Below are positions 12,714 through 63,609 of a stretch of 64,000 nucleotides of DNA, in pieces; positions within the stretch are counted from its first letter, which is position 1; each line of letters begins with the position of its first letter. Under the pieces are notes generated by a model. It ran no database searches. It worked only from the letters and a program-made list of their open reading frames with translations, and was not told where the DNA came from. The stretch spans positions 23,663,033-23,727,032 of the forward strand of contig NC_081360.1 in assembly GCF_030684315.1 (NCBI RefSeq), read 5' to 3'. This stretch comes from Stegostoma tigrinum (Eukaryota). The position numbers and the translations under genes were made by a program.

Positions 12714-15700
12714 ATGAAAGCCTTCCTCCTCACCATTGCTGCAGTGCAGATTCTCCACTGCTCAGGTAGGTACCAGAGAGAGCTACACCTCATTGAGGAA
12801 CAAATTACTGCTAATGAGTCTCACTCGCTGAGATATCACCAATGTGTAAAAATAACTCACTGAAGAATCCAACACGATGCACTTCAGCGATTTGCGTAGT
12901 TGAAAACTGAGCAGTAACAGACTATTCCTGGAGTGTTTTGCACAATTTTCTTTTTCTCTTCACAGGAGTACCAAACCCTGAGGATGCTTTGCGGGCAGCT
13001 GTTATGAAGCTGAATGAAATAAGTGAAATCAGTCACCTTTGCCGTACCATCAGCAGCACAGTGACAGATGTAAGTGTGCCCTGGTCTCAGCCTGTTTCAC
13101 TCTCTAAAGTCTGCAAGAATGTTATTGAGAGCAGTTCCACATGAATTATTACTTAGAACAGAATGGTATATTACACACACTGACGGCAATCACGGTTCAG
13201 GAACGCAATCATGATTCAGTGTATAATTTTGAAATTCTGACTGGGGAATTAGATTAACCTGTTGTGAGTGAGGTTTGAATTTCTTCCAAGCTATATATCT
13301 AAGAGATCATAGCTGTTTTGTAGCCTTTACTTTTTACCGTTTTGCAAATAAATAGATTAAAGTTTGAAGCTTGAGTTTCAACTCCCTCTGGTTGGTGGGT
13401 CCCAAGGTGATATTGGATTTGAAATCAAGTTGATCACACCCTGTTCCCACACAGTTACCACACTGCCTGAGGCTTGTGCTCAGCTCTCCTCAAGGCAGGA
13501 GGTTCTTCAATGCAAAGAGTTTCTCCGATGAATGGATTCCTGGGCAGATTGTAGGTGCCATCCTGCTGAGCAGGAGCAAGACAGTGGTATTCAAGTAGTC
13601 TTTCCCTGGGCAGATTTTGTAGAAAACTGTCCTCACCAGGCNNNNNNNNNNNNNNNNNNNNNNNNNNNNNNNNNNNNNNNNNNNNNNNNNNNNNNNNNNN
13701 NNNNNNNNNNNNNNNNNNNNNNNNNNNNNNNNNNNNNNNNNNNNNNNNNNNNNNNNNNNNNNNNNNNNNNNNNNNNNNNNNNNTTCCGCCGCCCCCCCGT
13801 CTTATCACATCCAGCCCTCTCCCATCACACCCAACCTATGCTCCATCACCGCCTGCTCACACAATCAATGAAGTACAATGCCCACTGCCAACCCTTAGTT
13901 TTCCCTAACCCCACCTTCCCCCTCACCATTTGCTACCCCTTGATTATACTTCACCTTTTCACTACCCTCCCCAGCTCTGTCAATCCCTTCATGATCATGC
14001 AGCAAAATCTTTACTGACTGAGGTGGCCTTTGGAAGGCCTGATTCAGTAAAACCAGAATGTTCAGTTTGAAGATGGACAGAATACCCCAACCAGAGGAGT
14101 GCAGTGGTCACTCCATCCAACCAGCAATATGATGCAGCATGCAACAAAGACCCTGTTCTGCCCTGAGATTATGATACAATATTTAAAAATGTTGAGATAT
14201 TTAGGTCAGATGATGAAAGGTTTTGGTCAAATTGGTAAATTTTAAGGCAGAATCTTCAACATGAAAAAAAATCAAAACTAGGAGCAGAAGGCCATTTGGC
14301 CCTTAAAGCCTGCTTCACCATTCAGTATGGTCATGGGTGCTCACCCAACTTGGTGCCAATTTCCCTCCATTCACTTTGAACCCTTTATCACTAAGAACCA
14401 CATCTATTTTCTTTTTGTAAACATTCAATAATTTGACCTCTGTAGCAGAGAAAGGCTCATCATTCACCAGTGAAGAAATTTCATTTCAATCCTAAATGAT
14501 CTGCGATGTATCCTTATATTGTGACCACTGGACCTCAATCATTAGAATCCCTGCAGTGTGGAAACAGGCCCTTCAGCCCAACAAGTTCACACCGACCCTC
14601 AAAGCATCCCACCCAGACCATCCCCTGAATCTACACATCCCTGAACACTGTGGGCAATTTAGCATGGCCAATCCACCCAGCCTGCACATCTTTGGACAGT
14701 GGGAGGAAACCAAAGCACCCAGAGGAAACCCATGCAGACACTGGGAGAATGTGTAAACTCCACACAGACAGTCACCTGAGGGCAGATTCGAACCTGGGAC
14801 GCTGGCACTGTGAGGCAGCAGTGCCAACCACTGAGCCACAGTGCTTCCCCTAAATGTCCTGGACTGCCCGGTCATCAGGAACATCCATCGTGAGTTTACC
14901 CTGTCTATTTCTGTTAGAATTTTATAGGTTTTATGAGATTCCCTCTCATGCTACTGAACTGCAGTTAACAGTGGCCTAACCAATCCATTCTCTCCTTACA
15001 CATCAATCCTGCCATTGCGGAATTAGTCTGGTGAATCTTTGTTGTACTCCCTCTGTTGTCAGTACATCCTTCCTCAGATAAGGAGATCAAAACTGCACAC
15101 AGCATTCCAGGTGCGGTCTCACTAAGGCCTGTACAATTGCAGCAAGTCATCCCTGCCTGTGTATACAAACTCTTTCAGTATGAAAGCCAAATACCTTTTG
15201 CCTTCTTTATTGCCTTTTGCAACTACATGCACAAGGACACCCTGGTCTTGTTGCATCTGTTCCCCTTTCAAGAAAGGAAAGCAAGATAAAGAGAGGTGAA
15301 ATAGAAAGAACTCCAAAGTCTAAGGCCCAGGAAGTTTAAGGGATTGCTGCCAAAGTTGAAGAATTATAACTGTGGGAGTTCATGAAATCAGAATTAGAGG
15401 AATACAGATATCATGGAGGGATGTAGGGCTGGAACAGATTGCAGAGATAGGGCGAGTTCAGGGCCTAGAGGGATTTGAAAACAAGGATGACAATTTAAAA
15501 ACTTTAAGTATTACTTTGCTAACAGACCTGTAAGCACAGGATGACAGATGAATGTGTCAGAGGTGACAGAGTTTTAGATGAGTTCAAAGTTTATATTGTG
15601 CGCCTGCTAAAGAGACAGCATTAGAAAAAGCTAACCCTAAAGGTAACAAAGGCATGAATGAAAATTCAGCAGGACAAACATGACAAGCACACATTGTCAT

Positions 15701-18700
15701 ATTATTAAGACCTGGATGAGAATTCAAGCATGAGGATACTGTTCTACATTGTACATCACCACCCACCATTCATAAGAACACAATAAACTGAAACAGAAAT
15801 AGGCCATTCAGTCCCTCAGGCCCACCCCATAATTCTAGATCATGACTGATCAGCTTCAACACCACTTTTGTGCACTATACATATATTCTTTGATATTGTT
15901 ATTTTGTTGAAATTTACTGATCTTCATCTTGAACAGCCAAGGCTTTGCAATACTCTGGGACAGAAAAGTCCGGAAATTTTCACTCGCAAAAATTCCTTCT
16001 CATGATCATCTAATTTGCCACAGTTCAGCGTATAAAGTTTTAATGGGTTTTTATAACATACACTGTGTACCGGCCAAGTTGTTTTTCATTGACACAAGGC
16101 CAGTGAACAGGGAATCTGTCCAAATGACTCCTGGCCAGAGACTTGAGCTTGGGATGAAGATATTTTATTGTTGCCTGCCCTGATAGTTTTCTGAGAGCAT
16201 CACCATTTACCATGAATCATCTGGAGGAGATCCATCAACAAGACACTAGTGTAGCCATTCATCCGATAGACGGGCAGTTATCTAGGAAGCAGGAAAAATG
16301 TTGTCGGAATGACAAAGAAAGATAGGAACTGGAGTAGACCATTCAGCCCTTTGAGCCTGTTTCACCAGTCTGGATCACGGCTGATCATCTACCTCACCCC
16401 CACAATTTTACAAATCCCTGCAGCCACTTCCCAATCCCTCACCATTTAAAAAATACTCTGAGCCTCCATCCCTCCTACGAAAGTGGATAGCCTCACGTTC
16501 ATCCACATTATGTTCCAGCTGCTATGCATTCCACCCAAACCTGCTGGAAGCCTCTTTGAATCCTCCATGCATCTCACATTCCCCTCTCCTATAATCATCT
16601 GCAAACTTGGAAATATTACAACTGGTTCGATCATCTAAATCATTGATCTAAATTGACGAGAAACTGAAACTTCAATACAGAATCCTTTGGGCATCCTTTT
16701 GGTCAGAGCTTGCCAACCTGAGTATTATCCTTACTCTCTCTGCCTGTTAACCAATCCTCAATCCATGCTGGTATATTGCCCCATTCCATACATTTTCATT
16801 TTGCTTATTAATGCTCTGTGTGTGGCTGTATCCAAAGGCTTCCAGGGATTCAAACACGCCACATCCATTAGTTTCCCTCATTGACATTTCCAGTATTTAC
16901 CTGTATACATATACCACTAACTGATAAATCTCAGAACTTAATCAATCGCACTTCTTGAGGGCATATAACTAACATTTATTCCTTCATCTAGCTTTCTCCC
17001 ACTGGAAAATTCTCCTACAACGTGGACCTGGCATTTTCTGTGAAAGAAACCGTCTGTTCCAAAAATTCTGGGCTCGAGTTTGATGATTCTAGCTGCAGTT
17101 TCCGGCCCACGAAGATCGCTGTAAGTAACTGAATTGGTGATGAGAAAAAAACATTTCTGCCTCCATTTCTTGACCACCCCTGCTAACATGAGTGGGTTGC
17201 TGTGAAATGCACACCCAAGTGACGACAAACACTTTGTTTGTGAGCACCAACCTCATACACCAAGCATTTATTTTTTTTAAAACCAGAGGCTCACATGGGC
17301 TCACTTTGCAGGATCAGCAACATATTTTCTTCATTATAGACCGAATGAATGGTCTTATTCAGTGGAGTTTTGTCACACTGGAGGCAGGGTGGTTGAAGTC
17401 ATTCAGCTTCATGTGAAGCTGTGTTGGCTGTTCTGAGCACTCTGCCCGGATGTATTCAGAGTTTGCAACGGTTACCTGTTGCTTCCTGCAGAGGGTTTCC
17501 ATTTCTCCAAATCGTGTGGGTCAGAGCGAATGAAGGGAGGCAACTGCAAACAAACCTATCCTCATTGGGTGTGCCGGTGAGGTAGAAGAATGTTCCTTTC
17601 AGAAATAACTCTATTTAGTTGACGGTGTATTTCAACCTTAGGGTTAGCAGGAGTTGTGCTTTGTGAATTCTTTGTATTGTCAAGTGGGTAGGATAATTCT
17701 TATGAACTTGAATCTATTCTGTTTCTCATGTCTGGGCTGTATACTCCGTCCACAACAATATTAGGAATTATAGTTCAAAGTTCTATTTCACAACAAAGTT
17801 AATGAATCCATGTAAATAGAAACAGTTTCAACACCAAGAGGCCCCATAAGGTAGTATCATGGGTGCCGTGAATCTACTTTTTGTGCCCACTAATGTAGTT
17901 TTCATGGGAAAACCTCCAATTTTATTCTAATGTCAATATTTTTACTCCGTTTTCTGGTACTGTAAAAACAGAACGCATCACTGAAGAGCACAAGAGGACT
18001 GATCCAGTTAACTCTTTCTTGGCTCTCATTTATGTCAGCGATATTGTTGGGACTTCGACCCACCCTGGGACTCTGGGATAATTGCTGACACCGACGCAAT
18101 GGCTGGAAGCCAGCAGAGCTCTGCAAGACTAGTAGAGAGTGGCAGTGCATGTTGAGGGCTCAGATGTTTTGTATGGAATGTCAGACCACCCTTCACCCTC
18201 TCACCCCTATGTCTAATCTGTAAGTTTTCCATTTGCATTCCAACAATTTCTGAGTGGAACTGGAGCAAGCGGAGAAGCAAAATGAGGGAGGAAATCTCAC
18301 TGTCTCCCTTTCCCAGTAACTCCTCTCCAAGATATTCATCTACTGATGCCCATTACTTGCTAATGATCACAGGAAGGAACAGAAATATTTTTAAGGGCAA
18401 ATTGTCATTTGAGGTCCTGGCGCATTAGAGATAAGCTTCAAGGAACAACAGATCAGCAGGAGAACCACACTGTGCAGCAAATCTCCAAAGTCTGCTGCTC
18501 TAGGTATGGTAATCCTAACATCTTCACTCCCAAAAGGCAATCTGTTCAATGCACAGCAGTGGCTCAGGGGCCAGAAATTTGTCCAGGACCAGAGAATCCA
18601 TCTTTGAGCCAACAGAAGTCCCAGGTGCACAAAGAGTGGAACTAAATGTCTGGAAGCTTGATTTTTGTGAGCAAGGGACAGTGTGACAAAATGGTGGCAC

Positions 18701-21700
18701 TGTAGTTAGCGCTACAGCTCACAGTGCCAGGGACCAGGTTCAATTCCAACATTGGAATTCCAACATTCTCCCCATGTGAGTTTCTTCTTAGTGCTCTGGT
18801 TTCCACCTGCAGTCCAAAGATGTGCAGTTTAGGTGGATTGGACGTGCTAAGTTGCCCCCAAGTATCCAGCAATGTGCACATTAGATGGATTGGCTGTGAT
18901 AAATGTTAAGGAGATAGGGTGGGATGCTCTTTGGAGAGTCAGGGCTGACCCTCTTTGAACTGTAGGGATTCTGTGATTCGAGGCTGAGGGTGAGTAACAT
19001 CATTTACTCATGTGGGAATGTGTACAATGGAGAGCCTGTCAACATCCCAACTCTCGCCAATTAAATCTGGGTCGGGAAGGTCAGGAACAGCCAACTGAAA
19101 CCACATAAAGGGTCTCTGCCTGCCGCCTCTGCAGTTATGGTGAAATTATGTGGGCAGGCCACCCTGGCGGACCTGCCCTGAAGTCAGAGACTGTCTTCCA
19201 CTCAAGCACCCTGTGATCTATGGTGGGGTCCTCCAGTGGCAATTGCAGGACTTCTCACTGCCCTCCAAATGTGGGCCCCTCTGTGGCATGCCTGACCAAC
19301 TGCAGTTCTCGCCAGTGGACAGGCGCAACACAACAATTAATAAACCCAGCACAAACACGTTGAAAGCAATGGAAGAAGAGAAAACCCATTCTGTCAATCC
19401 TGCGTAATTGTGAGGCCTCACAAAGCACTAGATAGCAACGCCCTGACACCACCTGAAAATCATGCAATTTGGAAAAGATGTGAGCTGGAGAAAAACTCAG
19501 GCCACTTAAGGAGAGGGAAATCTGAAATATTGTTTTTTTGTACCTTCCCATTGGCTTTCTCCACCAGTTCTTTCTCCTGACTTCTAAAACTTGATTTTAC
19601 ACCAATGTTTCGGAAACCCAAGAGAAAGCCATGGTCATTTGCAAAGTACCGGTGTGAATAAAGGACCACTAGCTGAGACTCTGTTTCTTAGGGATGTACC
19701 AATGCAGCAGCAGATATGAAGTTTCAGGATTTGGAAAACACACACAGCAATGCTCACCCCTGATGTGGTTTTGTTTCTGCAGGAGACAGCTACATGCAGG
19801 AGTCGTGTTAAATATTTAGCTGATGAGGTACTCGATGTTGATGTTGAATGTCATGGCTTCAAGAAGGCCAGGGGCAATGGAGACTCGCTGGAGAGGCAGA
19901 GGAGTGAAAGTGAAATACACAGAGGCAACAAAGAGCAGAGTGACATTTCTCAAGGAGGGAAGGTTCACAGCAAACCCACCAAAGGCAGAAAAGGCCACAG
20001 AAGACAATCATCAAGGGCCAGTCATAACACAAGATCATCGGAATTAACCAACAGCAGTGAAGAGGTAAGCTGTCAGTCTTTAGAAGTTATTTTTTAGTCA
20101 GGTGATCATGGTCTGTTGTTCTCCCACCATCTTAAATACAAAAAAGTGAAGAACATTACATTTTAAAACAAACAAAAGTGGTGTCCGAATCAAATATGTA
20201 ATCATCCCATCCCTCCAATCCACAATATTTTCCAATATTGCATTCTACAAAGCTTTATCAAGGGCTTTACTAAAACCTCTATATACTCCATTGTCCAATT
20301 TCCCCCAACTAACACAAGTGTTAGCTTCTCAAAGAATTTTGAGGTTTACCAAGCATGGCTGATCCCACTGACATCCCTGTTTACTATTCCTAACTCCTTC
20401 CCTCTGTTTAAGCAGGTGATAATTTCATGATGAACGCAAAGTGTTTTTTTTTAATTTAAATGTTGGAGCGATTTAGTGTATTTGCTGTGTGGCGCATTTT
20501 CCAGTTCCTGTACAATTGTTAAATGGAACTCATAATGGCAATATGCTGGTTTATGGTGTGCCCATTAGATTGAACTGGGGAGAAATTACATTCTGAAACC
20601 CTAGTGGTGAACAGACTCCCTGCTCCTTATCAGTTGGCTGTCATGGGAAGCCTCGCTGTTCTAGTCATGAGCCAAAATGTAACACACAGATTAGAAGCCT
20701 CCATCCTTTTGTTCATTCACCATTACAATCTGTTAGTACTAACAGATTGTATCATTCTTTCACATTCTGCACTTATTGATAACAGGCTCAGATTAACCTA
20801 ATTGGAGGGTCTTAAAGATTTGCTGGAGACACACTGGCAACATAATAATACCACCGTCTCCCGACTTCTGTGGAGCAATAGTGAATGTGAATTGTCTCCT
20901 GGCCAAAAAATGGTACTCACCAACTATTCATAATTCCGAGTTGCCTATTCTTCCTTTTCAGTCTGATCTTACAGCTCAAATACATTGAGCATCATCTAGT
21001 TTACCCTCACCATCCCCCCGCATAATTCTCTTGCCCCCAATTGGTGCTGCCCAAGTGCTGCTTCAATATCCAAAGTTAGCTATTCTCTGCAGATACGGCA
21101 CAGCTAATAAAACGACACAGGCCTCACAGCAAGGATTACAGTTTAGTGTGCTCTACCCTTTGCCTATCCACTGAAAGTACAAATTGGCCCCAATTTATTA
21201 TTTATTGCTCAATGCTAAAGCAAAAACAGCCCAAGCAGATGAGAGCCACCTCATATTACAACTTGTATGAAAGTAGGGAAAATAGATGGATGATTTTAAG
21301 AAAGGAATTCTAGAACTTATGACTTTTACAGATGAAGGAACTGCTGAAACTGAAGTAGTGACCAAAATAAGGAATATGCAAAAAGTCAAAATTGGAAAAC
21401 ATATCTCAGAGAGTTGTGAGCCTCGGGAGTTTATAGAGGTGTTGGGGGGGGGGGGGGGCGCTGCGGTGCTGTGGGGGTGAAGCCATTATCATTAAGAATA
21501 TGAATAATATTCCACCATGACAAATTCAATATCAATGTTTCAGGGGAGCAAAGCTGAAGTGTAGAAAGATTCCCTGACAGAAACAACTTGCTAAATCAAT
21601 CTGAATAGATGATTATTACAAAACAATGTTCCCACTTTCACCTCTCGGACTTGCAACAGTTAGAAAATATGCTTGCAGAGAACTGGCCCTTCTCGACCAT

Positions 21701-22454
21701 AAGCTATTGCAAAATGCTTTAGTGCAGTTCATATTATTCAATTAATCTGGTAAATGCGCTATATGTTAGTGTTCTATCCTTGTAATCACCTCAAGTCCAC
21801 CAAACCTCCAAGATATCTGTTGTGCATTCCCAGTTTTAATGCCTCAAGCAGTAATGGCTGTGCCTTCAGTTGCCTAGGCCCTAAGCTTTTAAATTCTTTC
21901 CCTAAACCTTTTGCTCTGCCTACCTTATTTTCATCTTCTGAGGTGCTTCTCAAAACATAACTCTTTAAACAAGCTTCTGGTCACCTGTCCTGTTATTTCC
22001 TTAGGTGGCTTGGTGTCATACTTTGTTGTATCATGATGAACTTTGGGACATTCATTACATTAGTACAACATAAATATAAACTGTTATGTTCAATACAACC
22101 ATTCACCTAACCCCTGAGCCACAATCACATGTTGACAAAGAAGGAAATCTACTCTTCTATCTATGTTATGTTATTTCATTTATATCTTTTGTTTGGAAAT
22201 CATTTTGAAATTTGGTTCTTCGGGTTAAATGTCTTAATATTTCAACGCAGCTGAAAATGACATCAAGGGAATCATGGATGGAGGAATCTCTAAACGTGAG
22301 TAAGCTTGGACTTTGTGTCAGAGAATTACCTCTCAATCATGATCATAACAACAATAAAGCTTTGAACTCAGACAGAGTTCTGTCCATCTGAAAATGACTA
22401 CTTTTTCCATTCTGTTAATTCCAGGAATATGAAGATTCAAGATCCCGACACTAA
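12714..22454 (+). CDS. spp2: SPP2 (secreted phosphoprotein 24)-like secreted cystatin/cathelin-domain protein, paralog 1, ~213 aa, 6 coding exons
   Basis: join(12714-12765,12966-13069,16992-17120,19783-20064,22251-22295,22425-22454), all introns GT-AG, frame open. Protein: MKAFLLTIAAVQILHCSG VPNPEDALRAAVMKLNEISEISHLCRTISSTVTD LSPTGKFSYNVDLAFSVKETVCSKNSGLEFDDSSCSFRPTKIA ETATCRSRVKYLADEVLDVDVEC...TNSSEE LKMTSRESWMEESLN EYEDSRSRH*. Motifs DAL..AV.KLN, FSVKETVC..SG....C.F and TATCRSRVK.....V..V...C match SPP2 as recalled (DALSASVVKVN / FSIRETTCRKDSG / TAVCRSTVKV). ATTAAA at 22514-22519. An N gap lies in intron 2. Confidence 0.85.
13642..13783. other. Assembly gap (142 N) in intron 2 of paralog 1
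   Basis: Run of N. Confidence 1.
14275..15260 (-). mobile_element. CR1 LINE fragment interrupted by a SINE
   Basis: CR1 3' sequence on both sides of the SINE at 14541-14849; ORFs at 14965 and 15122(-) resemble CR1 ORF2 (DLLQLYRP). Confidence 0.75.
14541..14849 (-). mobile_element. tRNA-derived SINE (HE1-like)
   Basis: Reverse complement begins gcactgtggctcagtggttggcactgctgcctcacag (A box), then ggttcgaatc (B box), the gtctgtgtggagtt..cacattctccc core and a CR1-like tail. Confidence 0.9.
15290..15715 (-). mobile_element. Old L2-like LINE fragment
   Basis: gaactccaaagtctaaggccc...gagggatttgaaaacaaggatga motif, shared with 56690-57220 and 57990-58255. Confidence 0.5.
16320..16880 (-). mobile_element. 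CR1 LINE fragments (3' tail joined to RT region)
   Basis: taggaactggagtagaccattcagccc tail followed by decayed RT-region sequence (catctgcaaacttgg, tccaaaggcttcc). Confidence 0.6.
18690..18980 (+). mobile_element. tRNA-derived SINE (HE1-like), decayed
   Basis: atggtggcactgtagttagc...ggttcaattcc...agtccaaagatgtgcag...tgtagggattctgtgattc. Confidence 0.8.
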
Positions 22455-42852: not shown

Positions 42853-45800
42853 ATGAAGGTCTTCCTCCTCACCATTGCTGCAGTGCAGATTCTCCACTGC
42901 TCAGGTAGGTGCCAGAGAGAGCAGCACCTCATCAAGCAACGAGTTATTGGCAGTGAGGCTCACTCGCTGAGATATCACCAATGTGTAAAATAACTCGCTG
43001 AAGAACTCCAGAATGTTTTGTACAACTTTTCTTTTCTCTCGACAGGAAAACCAAGCCCGAAAGATGCTCTGAGAGTGTCTGTTCTAAAACTGAACCGAAT
43101 CACTGAGACCAGCAATCTGTGCGGGATAACTAGGAGAAGAGTGAAGGATGTAAGTGTGTCCCGGTCTCAGTCAGTTTCACTCTCTAAACTCTACGACATC
43201 ATTACTGAGTGCAGTTCACACAGATTATTACACAGGAGCAGAGTGTTATTATACACTTGGGCTGATGGGTGAATGAGCCCAGAGTAAGAATACCAGACAC
43301 AGTCAGACACAATCAGACACTAATAAACTGTTTTTCTCCCATCAGATTTATCGCACAGGGAAATTGTCATACAACGTGGATTTAACATTCTCTGTGAAAG
43401 AAACCGTCTGCTCCAAGAATTCTGGACTGGAATTTGATGATCCCAGCTGCCGCTTCCGAACCAAAAAGTCTGCAGTAAGTTCTTAGTTACATAGCCGCAT
43501 CCAAACCCTCATATGTATACCATAGAAAAGATCATGTACACTGAGTTATGTCATAGGAAGGGCAATATGACCTCAATTAGAGGTCACATTTACTGACATA
43601 TCACATAGAAAGGGTGATGTATATTGACAGAAACAACCGTGTGCCATGGATTATGTCGTAGAGAGATTGTCTCAACTGAGTACATAGTAGAAAGGGTTGT
43701 GCGTACTGGGATATACTATAGAAAGTAGAATGTGCAGTAAATTACATCATGAATGCTCCTTAAGTGATTGCCAAGCTTGTTGTGATCAATAACCTCAATG
43801 CTCTCTCATTTCATTTGGCAGGCGAAAGGATTTTGCAAGAGCCACGTTGAATATTTTGCTGATGAAGTTGTTGACATTGATGTGGAGTGTCGGGGATTGA
43901 AGACATTTGACAGCAGAAGTGGATCTTTCGAGTCCAGTGAAAACAGCATCGAGGTAACCTCACAACGTAACTCATCTGGACAATAGGGTCTCTGATTTTG
44001 CGCTTTAGTCTAGACCAGATTTTGTCAGGCTCAAAGTTGTATTTTGAATCTTCAAACTCTTCCTTTGGCAAACTCCTGTGGCAATGAAATAATAATCAGA
44101 CTTGTTCCTTGCTTTGCACCAGCAGTAGACATGTACAGAGATATTATTACTGCTTGCTGCTGTTCAAAGAAATAATTCCTCTTTATTATCTGAGGGTTAA
44201 CAGGACACAGTCCATTGTGTTGCTTTAATACTTCGACCATTGACCAAACTGAACCAGGACTGCACTCATTATTGTTATACCATAAACTATCCACATATTT
44301 GATGAAGCCTTCACCACTCCACACTGAAACACTGCACCCCATCCCAGAAATTTAACCATTTAAAATTCCTCATTTAATTTTAAAGGGTTACCGAATTGGG
44401 AATCATGCTCAAATTAATGCTTCACTCCTGTCCCAGGGCTAAACAGCAAAATATTTTGATTTTAATTCAGGTGAAAACCAGGAAAACATCTCGCCCAGGA
44501 GTCTACAAACGTGAGTATAAATCTGGATTTTTACCACAACACTATTGGCAACAACAAAGTGTATTTCTCTGGTTAGAGTGGAGTCTGTGACAGCACTGTG
44601 CTGTGTTTTTATTGAATTCAATGTCATCCAGAATAAGTTGGGAAAGGAAGACAAACACAAGAATCTTGTCAAGTCTTTGCCTGTGCTCATCAAAGGATGT
44701 TGGGAGGAACTTAAGTAGAGATGTTTGCTTTTCCCCATGAAGAATATCTCACACTAGAATAATGTAATCGAATCGACTTTTGCATTTTCAATACTTACCA
44801 GACAATAATTCCTGTGTAAAATTAAAATAACGCAGATTCTGAAAACTAGACACAAAACCAGTAGGTGCCGGTGTATCTCAGCAGATCTGGCAGCGCCTGT
44901 GGAGCGAGATGCAGAACTGCTCTGCCAAGGCCAGTATGACTTTTGAAGAAGAGTAAAACCTGTTTCTCTTTCCAAAGATGCTGCCAGACTGGCTGAGGTT
45001 CTCCAGCATTCCTTGTCTTTTCAATAGTTCTTGTGTTCTTGAGAGAATACACCAGATATAAACCGATCAACAATCTCCCACCATGTTAGTTTATCCACCA
45101 ACACCACAGCTCCACCGTCCCACAAGTGGAATGATTATTGCTGTGCTGGAGAATAGGAGATATTTGAAGAGGGATCCTCCACTCCAGTCCTGAGTCTCTG
45201 AATCTCGACTCCAAAATTTAAGGAGTTAACAGCTCATCATGTTTTTAAACATAGCAGTACAGAACTCAGTTATTCACAGAAGAATCTGATAGTTTAGAAC
45301 AATAACAAAATGATTCATTGATTCCTGACAATAAATCAATAATCTGATATTTTTAAATGCAGGTGTGAAGCAAATCAAAAGACTGGTCACTGCGGGAGGC
45401 TTCAAACGTGAGTATAAACTGGAACTTTGCGCCAAGAATTGTCTCTCAATCATGATCATCCATAACAATAAAACATTGAACTCAATCCATCCACCGTGGC
45501 CCAGTGGTTAGCACTGTTCCCTCACAGCACCAGGGAACCGGGTTGATTCCACCCACAGGCGACTGTCTGTGTGGAGTTTGCACATTCTCCCCGTGTCTGC
45601 GTGGGTTTCCTTCGGGTGCTCCGGTTTCCTCCCTCAGTCCAAAGATGTGCAGGCTAGGTAGATTGGCCATGTTAAATTGCCCATAGTGCTTAGGCATGTG
45701 TAGATTAGGTGGGTTATCGGGGATAGGTCTGGGTGGGGTGCTCTGAGGATCGATGTGAGCTTGGTGGGCCATAGGACCTGTTTCCACACTGTAGAGATTC

Positions 45801-45853
45801 TGTGATAATAACTATTGTGTTCATTTCTGTTCATTCCAGGAACACTGTGGTGA
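42853..45853 (+). CDS. spp2: SPP2-like paralog 2, ~171 aa, with frameshifted cationic C-terminal tail
   Basis: join(42853-42904,43046-43149,43346-43474,43822-43953,44471-44510,45363-45407,45840-45853), GT-AG introns. Protein: MKVFLLTIAAVQILHCSG KPSPKDALRVSVLKLNRITETSNLCGITRRRVKD IYRTGKLSYNVDLTFSVKETVCSKNSGLEFDDPSCRFRTKKSA AKGFCKSHVEYFADEVVDIDVECRGLKTFDSRSGSFESSENSIE VKTRKTSRPGVYKRVKQIKRLVTAGGFKRTLW*. Exons 1-4 are well supported by paralogy. The tail depends on inclusion of the 40-nt exon. Confidence 0.8.
45495..45803 (+). mobile_element. tRNA-derived SINE (HE1-like) in the last intron of paralog 2
   Basis: gtggcccagtggttagcactg...cctgtttccacactgtagagattctgtga; absent from the homologous last introns of paralogs 1 and 3. 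Confidence 0.9.
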
Positions 45854-57377: not shown

Positions 57378-57475
57378 GAGCCACTTGGCAGCAGCTTTCC
57401 CTGTCCAAGACCATAGTTGAGTAAATATGAGTCAGTGTTTGAATGTGGTTGAGGCGCGAGATATAAAGACTGAAC
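57378..57475 (+). promoter_or_regulatory. Proximal promoter of paralog 3
   Basis: TGAGTCA 57428-57434, TGTGGTT 57444-57450, TATAAA 57462-57467; same spacing as the other two paralogs. Confidence 0.75.
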
Positions 57476-57557: not shown

Positions 57558-60500
57558 ATGAAAGCCTTCCTCCTCACCATTGCTGCAGTGCAGATTCTCC
57601 ACTGCTCAGGTAGGTACCAGAGAGAGCTACACCTCATCAAGCAACGAGTTATTGGCAATGAGTCTCACTCACTGAGATATCACCAATGTGTAAAATAACT
57701 CGCTAAAGAACTCCAGAATGTTTTGTACAACTTTCCTTTTCTCTCGACAGGAATACCAAGCCCAAAAGATGCTCTGAGAGTGTCTGTTCTAAAACTGAAC
57801 CAAATCACTGAGACCAGCAATCTGTGTGGGATAACCAGGAGAAGAGTGAAGGATGTAAGTGTGTCCCAGTCTCAGTCAGTTTCATTCTCTAAACTCTACG
57901 ACAATGTTACTGAGTGCAATTCACTCAGATTATTACACAGGCGCAGAATGTTATATTGCACTTAGGCTGGTGAATCAGACTGGAGGTAGGGAGAGATGAA
58001 ATCGAGCAGGGATTTGAAAGGAGGGTAGCAATTTTGCAATCAATGTGCTGCTTAGTTCATACCCAAAAGAAGACAATGAGCACTGGGATAAATGGAACTA
58101 GATGTGAATTAAGTACTCACACCAGAATTCTGGGTGACCACAATTTTACAGGTTGAGGATTTGGAAGGTCATTAAGGGAATGTTAGAAAAGTGAGGTCCG
58201 GAGCAAACAAATGCACGAGAGGTTTTAAGAGCAAATGAAATTAGGCAGGACTGAATGACATCAGATACAGCCAGATAGTAATAAGCTGCCTCCCTCATTA
58301 GATTCAACGCACTGGAAAATTGTCATACAACATGGATTTAACATTCTCTGTGAAAGAAACAGTCTGCTCCAAGAATTCTGGACTGGAATTTGATGATCCC
58401 AGTTGTTTCTTCCATCCCAAAAAGACTGCGGTAAGTTCAAAAGTCACATTGTCACACCCAGACCAACATGCATAATGATATCATTGAATGCGATTTTAAT
58501 CAATTCTGCTTTGACAGGAAAAAGGTTTGTGTAAAAGTCGTGTTGAATACTTTGCTGATGAGGTTATTGATGTTGCTGTGGAGTGCCGGGGGTTGAAGAC
58601 ATTTGATAGCAACAGCGACGTTTCAGAGTTGACTGAAAACAGTATTGAGGTAATTTCATAACTGTACATATCCGCTTAATGAGATTTTTAATATCGCAGA
58701 TAATTTACATTTCTCATTGGTCTGCTGTGCTAAATAGAGAAATATTAATATTTTATTACAGGTCAAAACTAAGTCAAAGGAGATACCAAATGAGGATTCA
58801 ATTAATGTGAGTACAAAGTAGGAATTTGTCAGATTTTTCTCATTGATCAGGAAAATTCATAAAATGCTTAAACTCCAGGATCAAACTGTGTCAGAGCAAA
58901 GTATCAGACAGCAAGTTGCTTTAATCAGAGATAGTAGGGCAGGAGAACCAAAATACAGAGAAAGTTTGTTCTTTCCTATGGACCAATCAACTACACAGGT
59001 ACAAACAATGACATTAGAAAACCAGTATCTCTTACAATTTTATAAATGATGAATACTAATTACTTGTCATTTGCTGATGGAAATGCGGGTTTGTCACAAT
59101 AAATCGCAATTAATGGAGAATCAGAGCCTCCATTCTTTTATCCATCAATCCCACAGACTGTGTTGATCAGTGCTGTGCTAGAAATTTTCAGTAAGGATTT
59201 CCCGACTCCAGACATAACCCTATCAGATCATAGGCTGCTCTTTTGTTGCGGGAGAGAGACAACTAGTAGTGGTTTAACCTGAGGTTCACAACATCTCAGG
59301 TACGGGGATAGTTTGAAGAGGAGACTCTTTCATGCCAACTTCATTCTGTGCAGGAATTGAACCCGCACTGTTGGTGTCACTCATCACCCGTCCAGCCAAC
59401 TAAAGCTAACAGAATTTCCCAAAGGTAAAACACTGAGACACCGACTGCCAATTTGGAAACTCAAAACATTGCCCCTTCCACATTTGGAACCTTGTTGACA
59501 TTTAATTGTTTTGTTTCGAGTTGATGCCACAAATCAAAATACTAAACGTTCTAATCTGGATATTTTAATCCAGGAGGAAAGCAAGTCCACCGAATCATCG
59601 CTGGAGGAGTCTCCTGATGTGAGTACTATCTGAGATATTTTCTGTCAGCTAGCTATAACAAATGTAAACTGTTGAAAGCTTGATTCAGCTGTATCAGAAC
59701 AAGAGTTTGAACCAGCACTATGTATTTCATTTAGTTAAATGCATTTCTACGACCTAAAAATTGAAAACAGTTAACATTTCCTAATTTATGGTTTATTAAT
59801 CACTAAATCTTTGGCTTAAAAATAATTTCAGTTATAGTAGTAGTATTATAATACTAGTTTATAATTTAATTGTCTTAAATATAATTCTATAGTTCAATAT
59901 TTGTAATAAAATATTAAATCATTTCCCTGCAATAACAAGATGTATCTGAATATTTTATTCCAGGTGAAAAGCAAGTCAACAGAAACATCCCTTGAGGACT
60001 TTCCCAATGTGAGTATTTATTTTTTATTTTATATTTATTGCACTATTTCTTCATGGAGCATGCTCATTAACCAAGAGTCATGTATGGTGGTTAGTGCCAT
60101 GGGGCAGGGTGAGGAGGATGCTGGGTCCAAGAGCTACCTCAGCTGGTGTAAGAATTGAGCCCACCCTGTTGCCATTGTTCTGCATCAAACTCTCTCGACT
60201 TAACAACTGTGCTAACCCCACCATCTGATAGTTATCACTTCAGTTGTTGGATTGATGCTAATTGAATGATGATTGATTCCTCACATTGAGAAGTTTCCAA
60301 TAACTGGAGGGACACAAATGATGGTTTCATGAGGACAGCATCACTGTCATTCTCCTCATTCAATCGATTAGGAATTACTGGTTTTTCTGAAAGTGTGAAT
60401 ACATTACACACTCATCAATGGAAAACGTCAGCCTGTGTGTGTGTGTTGTTTGTGGTGGTGGAGTGTCATGGTGCACTGGAGCACCAGCCACATTGATTAG

Positions 60501-63500
60501 ATTAGATTCCCTACAGTGTGGAAACAGGCCCTTCGGCCCAACAAGTTCACACCGCCCCCTGAGGCATCCCACTCAGACCCATCCCCCTATAATCCACACA
60601 CCCCTGAACGCTATGGGCAATTTAGCATGACCAATCCACCTAGCATGCACATCTTTGGACTGTGGGAGGAAACCGGAGCACCGGACGAAACCCACGCAGA
60701 CACAGGGAGAATGTGCAAACTCTTCACAGACAGTTGCCCGAGGCAGGAATCGAACCCGGGTCCCTGGCACTGTTAGGCTGCAGTGCTAACCACTAAGGGA
60801 CCGTGCTGCCCTAAATTTGGCAAGGATTTCTCTGCTCCAGCACTGTGTCACTGAATTCAGACTCTGAACTTGAAAGAGTTGTCACTGCCTCATTGACAAT
60901 CTGATATTATTTCACTATTTTGCTTAGAGATGACTTGAAAAATTGAGATTATTTGCAAAATGCTAAGTATTTAAGCATTTTTTTTAATGCAGGTGAACAG
61001 CCAGTCAACAGAAACATCATTTGAAGATTCTGTAAATGTGGGTATAATCTGGGATTTTCTGTCATAATTATTTACGCAAAGAAAATGTTAAAACTTGGAA
61101 TTAACTGCATCACGCTTAAAAGCAATTCAGTTTTTATTAAATTAAATGAATGTCTAGAGAATAGAAGGTTCAAGAGTTAACATTTTCTCATTTATGGTTT
61201 AATGATCACAGCAATCTTTGATTTAAAAACTAAGTCGTGAAATTGTTGATATACAGTTCGGGACACCATACATCAGATGAATGTGAATGCATTTGAGAGA
61301 GTGCAGAAGAGTTTTACAAGAGTGATTTCAGGGAAGAGAAATTTCAATTATGAAAATAGATTGGAGAAGTTCACAGAATCATGGAATCATAAAATTTGAG
61401 TCCATTTTCCTTAGATAGGAGAAGGTTAAGATGAGATTTGATAGAAGGTTTCAAAATCAAAAGGGGTTGAAACCAACTGGAGAGAAAGAAACTGCTAGAT
61501 AATAAAATGTGAGGCTGGATGATGTTGTACCTACAACGCATCATCCTCCGACACTTCCGCCATTTACAATCCGACCCCACCACCCAAGACATTTTTCCAT
61601 CCCCACCCCTGTCTGCTTTCCGGAGAGACCACTCTCTCCGTGACTCCCTTGTTCGCTCCACACTGCCCTCCAACCCCACCACACCCGGCACCTTCCCCTG
61701 CAACCGCAGGAAATGCTACACTTGCCCCCACACCTCCTCCCTCACCCCTATCCCAGGCCCCAAGATGACATTCCACATTAAGCAGAGGTTCACCTGCACA
61801 TCTGCCAATGTGGTATACTGCATCCACTGTACCCGGTGCGGCTTCCTCTACATTGGGGAAACCAAGCGGAGGCTTGGGGACCGCTTTGCAGAACACCTCC
61901 GCTCAGTTCGCAACAAACTACTGCACCTCCCAGTCGCAAACCATTTCCACTCCCCCTCCCATTCTCTAGATGACATGTCCATCATGGGCCTCCTGCAGTG
62001 CCACAATGATGCCACCCGAAGGTTGCAGGAACAGCAACTCATATTCCGCCTGGGAACCCTGCAGCCATATGGTATCAATGTGGACTTCACCAGTTTCAAA
62101 ATCTCCCCTTCCCCTACTGCATCCTTAAACCAGCCCAGTTCGTCCCCTCCCCCCACTGCACCACACAACCAGCCCAGCTCTTCCCCCCCACCCACTGCAT
62201 CCCAAAACCAGTCCAACCTGTCTCTGCCTCCCTAACCGGTTCTTCCTCTCACCCATTCCTTCCTCCCACCCCAAGCCGCACCCCCATCTCCTACCTACTA
62301 ACCTCAACCCACCTCCTTGACCTGTCCGTCTTCCCTGGACTGACCTATCCCCTCCCTACCTCCCCACCTATACTCTCTCCACCTATCTTCTTTACTCTCC
62401 ATCTTCGGTCCGCCTCCCCCTCTCTCCCTATTTATTCCAGTTCCCTCTCCCCATCCCCCTCTCTGATGAAGGGTCTAGGCCCGAAACGTCAGCTTTTGTG
62501 CTCCTGAGATGCTGCTTGGCCTGCTGTGTTCATCCAGCCTCACATTTTATTATCTTGGAATTCTCCAGCATCTGCAGTTCCCATTATCTCAGAAAGAAAC
62601 TGCTCCCTGTTTATAAATGAATGCATCAAGAATGAGAAAACAGAGATATCAGGTAATTTAAAAAAGATGCAAATGTAACGTGAGAAAAAAAGACTCTTTC
62701 ACACAGTGAGTAGTTGTGGTCTAGAACACACTGCCTGGAAATATGGTGGAGACAGGTTCAATTGAAACAAATGGAAACTTACTTAGGATTACGAGAAAAG
62801 GCGCTAAAATAACAGAGTCACAATGCTCAGTCAGAGAGATGATTTAGAAACAATGGGCCAAATGGCCTAATTCTGTACTATAATGGTGCTGTGACAAAGA
62901 TAGTTTCATTATTCAATGTTAATTAAAAAATAGCTCATGGATTCCTTGTGTAAGCATAGTAGCCCGAATATTTTAATGCAGGTGTAAAGTCTCATTTACA
63001 ATCAGATATCATTTAAACTGCTGTTTAGAGCAGAATCTAAAAGGTCAACATTATTTAGAAATACTAAGTATATAAATCTGCATACTCTAGGTGAGGAGCA
63101 AATCAACAGAAACATCAGTGGAGGATTCTCCAGATGTGAGTACAACCTGAAATTTTATGTTGTTTATACTATTAACACAAATAAGCTGTTGAAACCTGGA
63201 TTCAGTTGCAATGCACAAGTCTGACACAGCTCTGTGTTTTTAACCAATTCAACATATGTACAGGCTCTATAAATTTAAACAGTTAATATGTCTTCATTAA
63301 TGGCTTAGTAATCAGAAGAACCTTTGGTACAAAAATAATTTCAATGCTCAATAACAGATGAAAGACATATCATTGATTCCCTTTAATAACCAGATGAATC
63401 TTAATTGTTTTTAAACAGTTGAACAACAAGTCAACAGAAACATCATTCGATGTGTCATCAAATGTGAGTATAAATTGAACGTTAGTGTCAGAGAATTGTC

Positions 63501-63609
63501 TCTCGATCATAATAATATATTGAACTCACGTTGAACTCAGCCCATTTGAAAATGACCATTATTTTTGTTCTGTTCATTCCAGGAACAAAATGATGATTCA
63601 AGATCTTAA
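57558..63609 (+). CDS. spp2: SPP2-like paralog 3, ~237 aa, with six-repeat acidic S-x-E tail (11 coding exons)
   Basis: join(57558-57609,57751-57854,58302-58430,58518-58649,58762-58806,59574-59618,59964-60008,60993-61037,63091-63135,63419-63463,63583-63609), GT-AG introns, frame open. Exon 2-4 lengths (104/129/132 nt) equal those of paralog 2. Tail: VKTKSKEIPNEDSIN EESKSTESSLEESPD VKSKSTETSLEDFPN VNSQSTETSFEDSVN VRSKSTETSVEDSPD LNNKSTETSFDVSSN EQNDDSRS*. ATTAAA at 63669-63674. Confidence 0.85.
60494..60811 (-). mobile_element. tRNA-derived SINE (HE1-like) in a paralog 3 intron
   Basis: gattagattagattccctacagtgtggaaacagg...gctaaccactaagggaccgtgctgccc. Confidence 0.9.
61497..62590 (+). mobile_element. 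5'-truncated young Penelope-like element (GIY-YIG endonuclease) in a paralog 3 intron, nested in an old CR1 fragment (~61255-62890)
   Basis: ORF 61519-62235 with NVVYCIHCTRCGFLYIGETKRRLGDRFAEH...LGTLQPYGIN. 14-bp TSD agaaagaaactgct at 61483-61496 and 62591-62604. 61497-61522 is an exact inverted copy of 62530-62555. Confidence 0.93.
62463..62490 (+). ncRNA. Candidate minimal hammerhead ribozyme core in the Penelope terminus
   Basis: CUGAUGA-A-GGGU-CUAG-GCCC-GAAA-CG-UC: both catalytic boxes, a stem II and a minimal stem III. Stem I pairing is weak (about 2 bp). Confidence 0.5.

Follow-up and report, generated by a model that had tools for sequence, protein, structure and literature searches.

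The zebra shark, Stegostoma tigrinum, carries a secreted phosphoprotein gene whose C-terminal tail is built from repeated copies of one short exon. The gene occupies positions 57558–63609 (+ strand) of a 64,000-nucleotide (nt) stretch of contig NC_081360.1 (positions 23,663,033 to 23,727,032), hereafter the window; positions below are window coordinates, and those prefixed C9 refer to the contig that carries the window. It belongs to a tandem cluster of ten spp2 copies, among which it is an spp2.3 gene (secreted phosphoprotein 24, cystatin fold), and it encodes a cystatin-like domain followed by a predicted disordered acidic tail from six duplicated 45-nt phase-0 exons. We consider it probable that this six-unit tail is disordered and a likely FAM20C substrate, that mineralising chondrocytes secrete it, and that it binds calcium phosphate and limits crystal growth. 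In doing so, it would stabilise the amorphous form and modulate crystal growth in tesserae and vertebrae.

The spliced model has 11 exons and a 714-nt open frame of 237 codons. A TATA-like box (TATAAA, 57462–57467, + strand), a putative promoter element, lies 96 nt 5′ of the ATG. Coding exon 1 (57558–57609) encodes a signal-peptide-like N-terminus, a hydrophobic helix resembling that of named Spp2 proteins in the translation and the AlphaFold model, and is followed by a phase-1 intron; the other nine introns are phase 0. The cystatin-like domain begins in exon 2 (57751–57854), has its Spp-24 core in exon 3 (58302–58430; Pfam PF07448, E=7.4e-6, above the cut-off), and ends in exon 4 (58518–58649), which also encodes a serine-rich stretch with the first S-x-E motif (SIE). 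Mini-exons 1 to 6 follow at 58762–58806 (A-type), 59574–59618, 59964–60008 (B-type), 60993–61037 (C-type), 63091–63135 (second C-type), and 63419–63463 (terminal, D-type), the types being those of the flanking introns described below. The last coding exon (63583–63609) carries the TAA stop and a C-terminus common to 5/5 named 237-residue proteins; all of these exons are on the + strand. Each mini-exon is exactly 45 nt long, bounded by AG and GT, and phase 0-0, so that the six 45-nt phase-0 mini-exons of the preliminary description are borne out by canonical splice sites within the 237-codon open frame. In a leave-one-out profile of exon plus splice sites, the six units scored 44.6–71.2 bits, compared with a best score of 9.2 bits in 10 block-shuffles of the 314-kb region. 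Pairwise identity among the units at codon positions 1, 2, and 3 was 74, 77, and 54%, as expected of a selected coding frame. From these splice sites, conservation, and database gene models, all six mini-exons are presumed to be spliced into mRNA.

The spliced model was identical at 237/237 residues to zebra shark RefSeq XP_048391374 (a database gene model, not reads), which is listed in Table S14 of PMC13188829 (Debiais-Thibaud et al. 2026). Four further carpet-shark proteins showed 200–226/237 identity and the same six units. The preliminary description had proposed counting mini-exons in orthologs; the six-unit layout was kept in 5/5 carpet-shark 237-residue proteins, again as database gene models. 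A protein search with exon 3 returned 103/103 candidates, nearly all named secreted phosphoprotein 24-like and coming from sharks and rays. The gene scored 39.1 bits for PF07448 (cut-off 26), exons 2 and 4 taken singly had no Pfam match, and a PDB sequence search with exon 3 gave 0 matches. The mature domain has cysteines at residues 74, 87, 100, and 118, with one more at 43, and the serine-rich region past the domain that marks SPP2 is present in the gene model. Across the zebra shark genome, PF07448 gave only two sub-threshold matches, whereas the exon 3 query gave nine; the few PF07448 matches are attributable to exons splitting the domain. The ten spp2 genes lie within C9:23.51–23.76 Mb, three of them inside the window, and a vps8-family gene (TPR_Vps8 matches) lies at C9:23.94 Mb, about 210 kb off. 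The published spp2 synteny includes vps8 (PMC13188829).

In a domain tree of 37 rows, which held no spp2.1, spp2.Like, or bony-fish outgroup, the gene grouped with the catshark spp2.3 copies against spp2.2 (100/100). A quick tree of 117 rows left out 33/166 proteins. The AlphaFold model has a helix and strands up to residue 119 and a predicted local distance difference test score (pLDDT) below 50 over residues 126–237, in agreement with the disordered acidic tail anticipated in the preliminary description. Foldseek gave no match at E≤0.001; chemerin, cystatins, and cathelin domains ranked highest, a weak likeness to the cystatin superfamily.

S-x-E is the phosphorylation motif of FAM20C. About a dozen such motifs had been noted in the preliminary description, and exactly 12 were counted from SIE in exon 4 to the end, compared with a mean of 4.4 in 10,000 tail shuffles (P=1e-4); each unit contributes about two. 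The tail has 113 residues and a net charge of −19, which could reach about −51 if the 12 S-x-E sites and four primed serines were phosphorylated. Mammalian and bony-fish SPP2 have a signal peptide and share with the zebra shark protein the four-cysteine cystatin-like domain and a serine-rich region with putative FAM20C sites (PMC13188829), but are single-copy and liver-expressed. Three S-x-E motifs lie past the domain in each of three bony-vertebrate SPP2 proteins checked, as against 12 here. Such a phospho-tail is not new: SPP2 is already serine-rich past its cystatin domain (PMC13188829), and thus the acidic tail appears to be an amplification of an inherited module.

The unit was present in 9/10 paralogs in 1–6 copies, mostly of 45 nt with variants of 40, 42, and 60 nt. 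Units 2, 4, and 5 are followed by introns that align at 70–83%, which confirms the mutual intron similarity from which tandem exon duplication had been proposed. By their flanking introns, the units fall into four positional types (A-B-C-D) shared among carpet-shark paralogs. The terminal D-type unit is homologous to the lone unit of the paralog spp2.2, and its downstream intron is homologous to that of the spp2.2 unit (Z=16); therefore, the unit is likely older than the spp2.2/spp2.3 split. Within the long intron after unit 4, a complete intron of the C-D type runs to 62981; it is followed by a D-type unit stub at 62982–62990 (+ strand; acceptor and about 9 nt, partial match with E=0.057), where the intron types switch, and by a B-C-type 3′ end from 62991. 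We infer that this stub is the breakpoint, inside an exon, of the tandem duplication that doubled the C unit. Mini-exon 2 is a second chimera, with a B-like upstream intron and a downstream intron of the C-D type. These features suggest that the tail grew by tandem duplication of a single exon-plus-intron unit, the extra units probably arising by unequal crossing-over. Since the unit is symmetric (phase 0-0), gain, loss, or skipping of a copy leaves the reading frame intact.

Length tuning by alternative splicing, which the preliminary description had suggested, received partial support. Among 153 fetched proteins, 5/9 block-deletion pairs differed by exactly one 15-residue unit, and two spp2.2 database isoforms differed by the one unit; these pairs fit exon skipping in paralogs, whereas no such isoform was found for the gene itself. 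Six was the highest unit count found, in 9/114 distinct tails. Tail lengths modulo 15 placed 41/114 distinct tails in one class, the best of moduli 10–20, although this periodicity is weak, modulo 19 being close (5.0 against 5.4-fold) and the sequences related. Motif counts from 340 profile-found units are partly circular and were not used as evidence. Three units of other paralogs (C9:23741970, 23758726, and 23517816) appear to use GC donors, and one paralog unit is extended to 60 nt beyond a lost GT. In the elephant shark, the spp2.3 tail shows a period of 5/10/15 residues, and 22 S-x-E motifs lie past the domain.

The unit number may have drifted near-neutrally by costless unequal crossing-over, six units doing no more than three or four; we regard this as rather unlikely, though it deserves real weight. 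Counts of 1–6 coexist in a single cluster, symmetric disordered exons generally duplicate readily (PMC3632108), and S/E motif positions among the five orthologs were variable at 3/24 as against 20/66 for the rest (P=0.11), so that their extra conservation was not significant. However, six units are kept in 5/5 carpet-shark orthologs, and divergence is highest at third codon positions. Drift of this kind bears on the count alone and would not conflict with a mineral role.

The proposal of an SCPP-like design on a non-SCPP gene held: this is a cystatin-domain spp2 gene with an acidic S-x-E tail on short phase-0 exons. SCPP genes (SPP1, DMP1, AMBN, caseins, and the elasmobranch scpp) are likewise secreted, acidic, and S-x-E-rich, with duplicated short phase-0 exons (PMC9122587, PMC3632108). 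They arise from sparc-L 5′ exons at that locus, whereas spp2.3 has a cystatin domain and a vps8 neighbour. The supposed lack of SCPP genes in chondrichthyans has to be corrected, sharks and rays having an scpp gene (PMC9122587). The gene was also considered as a true SCPP and rejected: in SCPP genes the phase-0 rule holds from the first coding intron (PMC9122587), while intron 1 here is phase 1, and in place of a sparc-L origin and position we found a cystatin-domain spp2 in a vps8-linked cluster. The acidic, disordered S-x-E region on short phase-0 exons is an SCPP trait that supports similar working rather than membership. The tail would work like an acidic SCPP, but the gene itself is not one. 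Phase-0 S-x-E exons are typical of scpp, and elasmobranchs have one such gene (PMC9122587), from which, or from sparc-L, the tail exons might have been shuffled in, making the likeness homology. This is extremely improbable, given that the flanking introns of the unit trace to spp2 paralogs including spp2.2 and that the cystatin domain, phase-1 first intron, and spp2 synteny are all kept.

Of the roles envisaged earlier, that in mineralising cartilage is supported through catshark paralogs, whereas those in serum and in dentine or enameloid are disfavoured by catshark expression values. Expression of each of the seven catshark spp2.3 copies rises at mineralisation, with 260–2708 transcripts per million (TPM) in Meckel's cartilage; spp2.3 is reported in mineralising chondrocytes and as absent from liver (PMC13188829). 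The protein might instead circulate as a mineral chaperone or belong to the dentine/enameloid matrix, which would recall mammalian SPP2, which is liver-made and circulating, and the catshark spp2.1 and spp2.Like copies, which are expressed in denticles and dental lamina (PMC13188829). Such a role is very unlikely here: the gene groups with spp2.3, and in none of the seven catshark copies does TPM reach 0.2 in liver or blood, or 1.4 in denticles or dental lamina (PMC13188829). Mammalian SPP24 has been found in calciprotein particles (PMC13188829), and Spp24 has been grouped with cystatins and placed in the fetuin-mineral complex (PMC2784779, PMC3838770); the accessible part of PMC12650399 does not mention SPP2. 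Catshark expression and mammalian SPP24 biology together point to a locally secreted limiter of crystal growth, and analogy with mammalian SPP24, fetuin-A, and osteopontin suggests that tesserae and vertebrae may be where it acts.

The same gene and tail could instead serve to nucleate mineral at the cartilage matrix, something of which matrix-bound acidic SIBLING proteins are capable. The catshark paralogs are upregulated at the onset of mineralisation and made locally by chondrocytes, and copy number is one in the elephant shark, which mineralises weakly, and 18 in a heavily mineralised skate (PMC13188829). However, the lone elephant shark copy is the richest in motifs (22 past the domain), and mammalian SPP24 is found in inhibitory calciprotein particles, its overexpression lowering bone density (PMC13188829). 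We judge nucleation unlikely and a crystal-growth limiter probable.

Several points weigh against a phosphorylated, growth-limiting tail. The expression data come from catshark paralogs and cross-hybridising probes, and the direction of the mineral effect is left open in PMC13188829. Phosphorylation and mineral binding of the shark Spp2 tail are predicted, and splicing is deduced from splice sites, conservation, and database gene models. In addition, the extra S/E conservation fell short of significance, neither spp2.1 nor a bony-fish outgroup was in the domain trees, and Foldseek found nothing at its E≤0.001 threshold.

The same unit appears in a second frame in some paralogs. A neighbouring spp2.3 paralog at 42853–45853 (+ strand; exon 1 at 42853–42904, exon 3 at 43346–43474, and exon 4 at 43822–43953) has a 40-nt A-type unit with a GT donor at 44471–44510 (+; E=6e-7), which shifts the downstream frame. 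Its 45-nt D-type unit at 45363–45407 (+) is read in a K/R-rich shifted frame, frame 0 having a stop. The predicted shifted-frame tail is K/R-rich, with a net charge of about +11 and a stop in the last exon. A second cationic paralog, outside the window at C9:23580630-23585585 (− strand), likewise has a 40-nt first unit. Both D-unit differences between these copies (2/2) are synonymous when read in the shifted frame but not in frame 0. Of 256 fetched proteins, 26 contained the motif V-Y-K-R-V-K-Q-I/V-K-R or one close to it, from sawfish, stingray, electric ray, sevengill, sawshark, horn shark, carpet sharks, basking shark, smooth-hound, and catsharks.

Catshark spp2.3s1 and spp2.3s2 belong to this cationic class, with no S-x-E past exon 4, and reach 1109 and 2692 TPM, respectively, in Meckel's cartilage (PMC13188829). 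That paper describes an arginine-rich end as obvious only in spp2.1 and spp2.L2. In the zebra shark genome, the cationic genes flank a central pair formed by a divergent gene, likely spp2.1, and spp2.2. Table S14 lists catshark s2 and s1 either side of spp2.2 and spp2.1 (PMC13188829), and the catshark layout would be the same if that table follows gene order. In catshark spp2.3s2, the shifted-frame 15-residue unit occurs twice, and the exon seems to have been duplicated again after the frame shift.

In cathelicidins, too, a cystatin-fold domain precedes a short cationic peptide at the C-terminus. The frame-shifted paralogs share this layout and a weak Pfam and fold likeness, but their Pfam family is Spp-24, they are expressed in cartilage, and their helical amphipathicity does not exceed that of shuffled sequences (P about 0.07). 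Cathelicidin identity was rejected (PF00666 at 13.6 bits against a cut-off of 21, hydrophobic moment at shuffle level), as was an amphipathic helix in the cationic tail (hydrophobic moment not above shuffles, P 0.07–0.33).

Tentatively, and at well below even confidence, we propose that sharks and rays use one exon module in a two-charge mineralisation system, in which both classes predate the shark-ray split, are co-expressed, and jointly position calcium phosphate. In frame 0 the unit would encode a polyanionic phospho-repeat; after a 5-nt upstream loss, the same unit would encode a conserved polycationic tail. Gene-converted 5′ ends shared by both classes would make them co-expressed, and the classes may pair mutually or anchor to sulphated cartilage proteoglycans in tessellated cartilage.

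The 5′ exons of the cluster look homogenised by gene conversion. Exon 1 was identical at 52/52 nt in 6/9 paralogs compared, including spp2.2, whose exon 1 matched five spp2.3 paralogs at 52/52 nt while its exon 3 showed just 70–78% identity. Likewise, introns of spp2.2 and spp2.3 agreed at 81–93% for intron 1 and 47–62% for intron 3. Near-identical exon 1, upstream DNA, and intron 1 at 12714–12765, 42853–42904, and 57558–57609 form a gene-conversion signature. The spp2.2 signal peptides share lineage-specific residues with spp2.3 of the same lineage. In the domain tree, shark genes cluster by lineage rather than by tail class, and the tail-class label changes nine times; the three ray cationic rows form a clade. 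Forcing 13 cationic-tail rows together costs 129 log-likelihood units (approximately unbiased test, p=2e-9), the cationic group having been defined from tails after the quick 117-row tree was seen. Because nine separate origins of the cationic motif are unlikely, we infer homogenisation of the 5′ exons, which would challenge the reading of recent independent duplications in PMC13188829.

Insertions between the intact mini-exons had also been described; the repeats are real and include a Penelope-like element, the family labels being partly checked. This element (61483–62604, + strand) is nested in a LINE-like fragment. The repeat at 61532–62597 has up to 63 copies in 314 kb and a 240-codon open frame with a GIY-YIG match below the cut-off (Pfam E=6e-4), and a 14-mer is duplicated at 61483 and 62591, flanking it. 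The GIY-YIG frame and the duplicated 14-mer are the reason for calling it Penelope-like. The fragment at 61250–61396 resembles a nearby open reading frame bearing a reverse transcriptase and is thus LINE-like. An interspersed repeat in the intron after unit 3 (60501–60815, strand unassigned; up to 17 copies in 314 kb) is one that we take to be SINE-like. A weak tRNA-like match lies at 59342–59415 (E=0.065); ARAGORN found no tRNA.

Three paralogs were noted for their structure. The spp2.2 paralog (12714–22295, + strand, from the ATG to the lone 45-nt unit at 22251–22295) has a long basic extension of exon 4 and that one unit. Adjoining the window, the paralog at C9:23739136-23744292 (+) is probably a pseudogene, with exon 4 interrupted by a stop and exons 2–3 unusually altered. 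The divergent spp2 gene, likely spp2.1, at C9:23601725-23608512 (−) is one in which no 45-nt unit was detected.

The main idea of the preliminary description is right, and its functional inference and SCPP parallel have already appeared in print. The elasmobranch spp2.3 clade of PMC13188829 is the same family at the same locus, with an S-x-E-rich C-terminus and the identical protein listed, and that paper reports the tandem expansion, four clades, S-x-E accumulation, putative FAM20C sites, and a comparison with SCPP. The word 'exon' is absent from its main text and eight readable supplements (figures and.fas supplements lay outside the search), as are 'conversion', 'concerted', 'splic', and 'lysine' from its main text. 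Figures and.fas files aside, its text does not describe the unit structure, the frame-shifted cationic class, or the 5′ homogenisation. A search that left most subscription journals uncovered found nothing published on how spp2 exons are organised in cartilaginous fishes, or on a frame shift or gene conversion in these genes, and the figures and alignments of PMC13188829 might show some of this. The exon-level mechanism, the use of the unit in two frames, and the 5′ homogenisation look unreported.

These exon-level findings would matter to specialists. Among the seven 'mineralising' catshark genes, two have a basic tail and lack S-x-E units, and one of these ranks among the two with the highest expression. 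If gene conversion is true, the species-specific clusters of the published tree do not date duplications, and probes and short reads cannot separate the acidic from the cationic class. Shark cartilage mineralises in the absence of bone and with few SCPP genes, and at present spp2.3 is the best candidate family for this process. Its exon map, with 1–6 units and skipped isoforms, offers a natural dose series for asking whether the tail promotes or restrains mineral.

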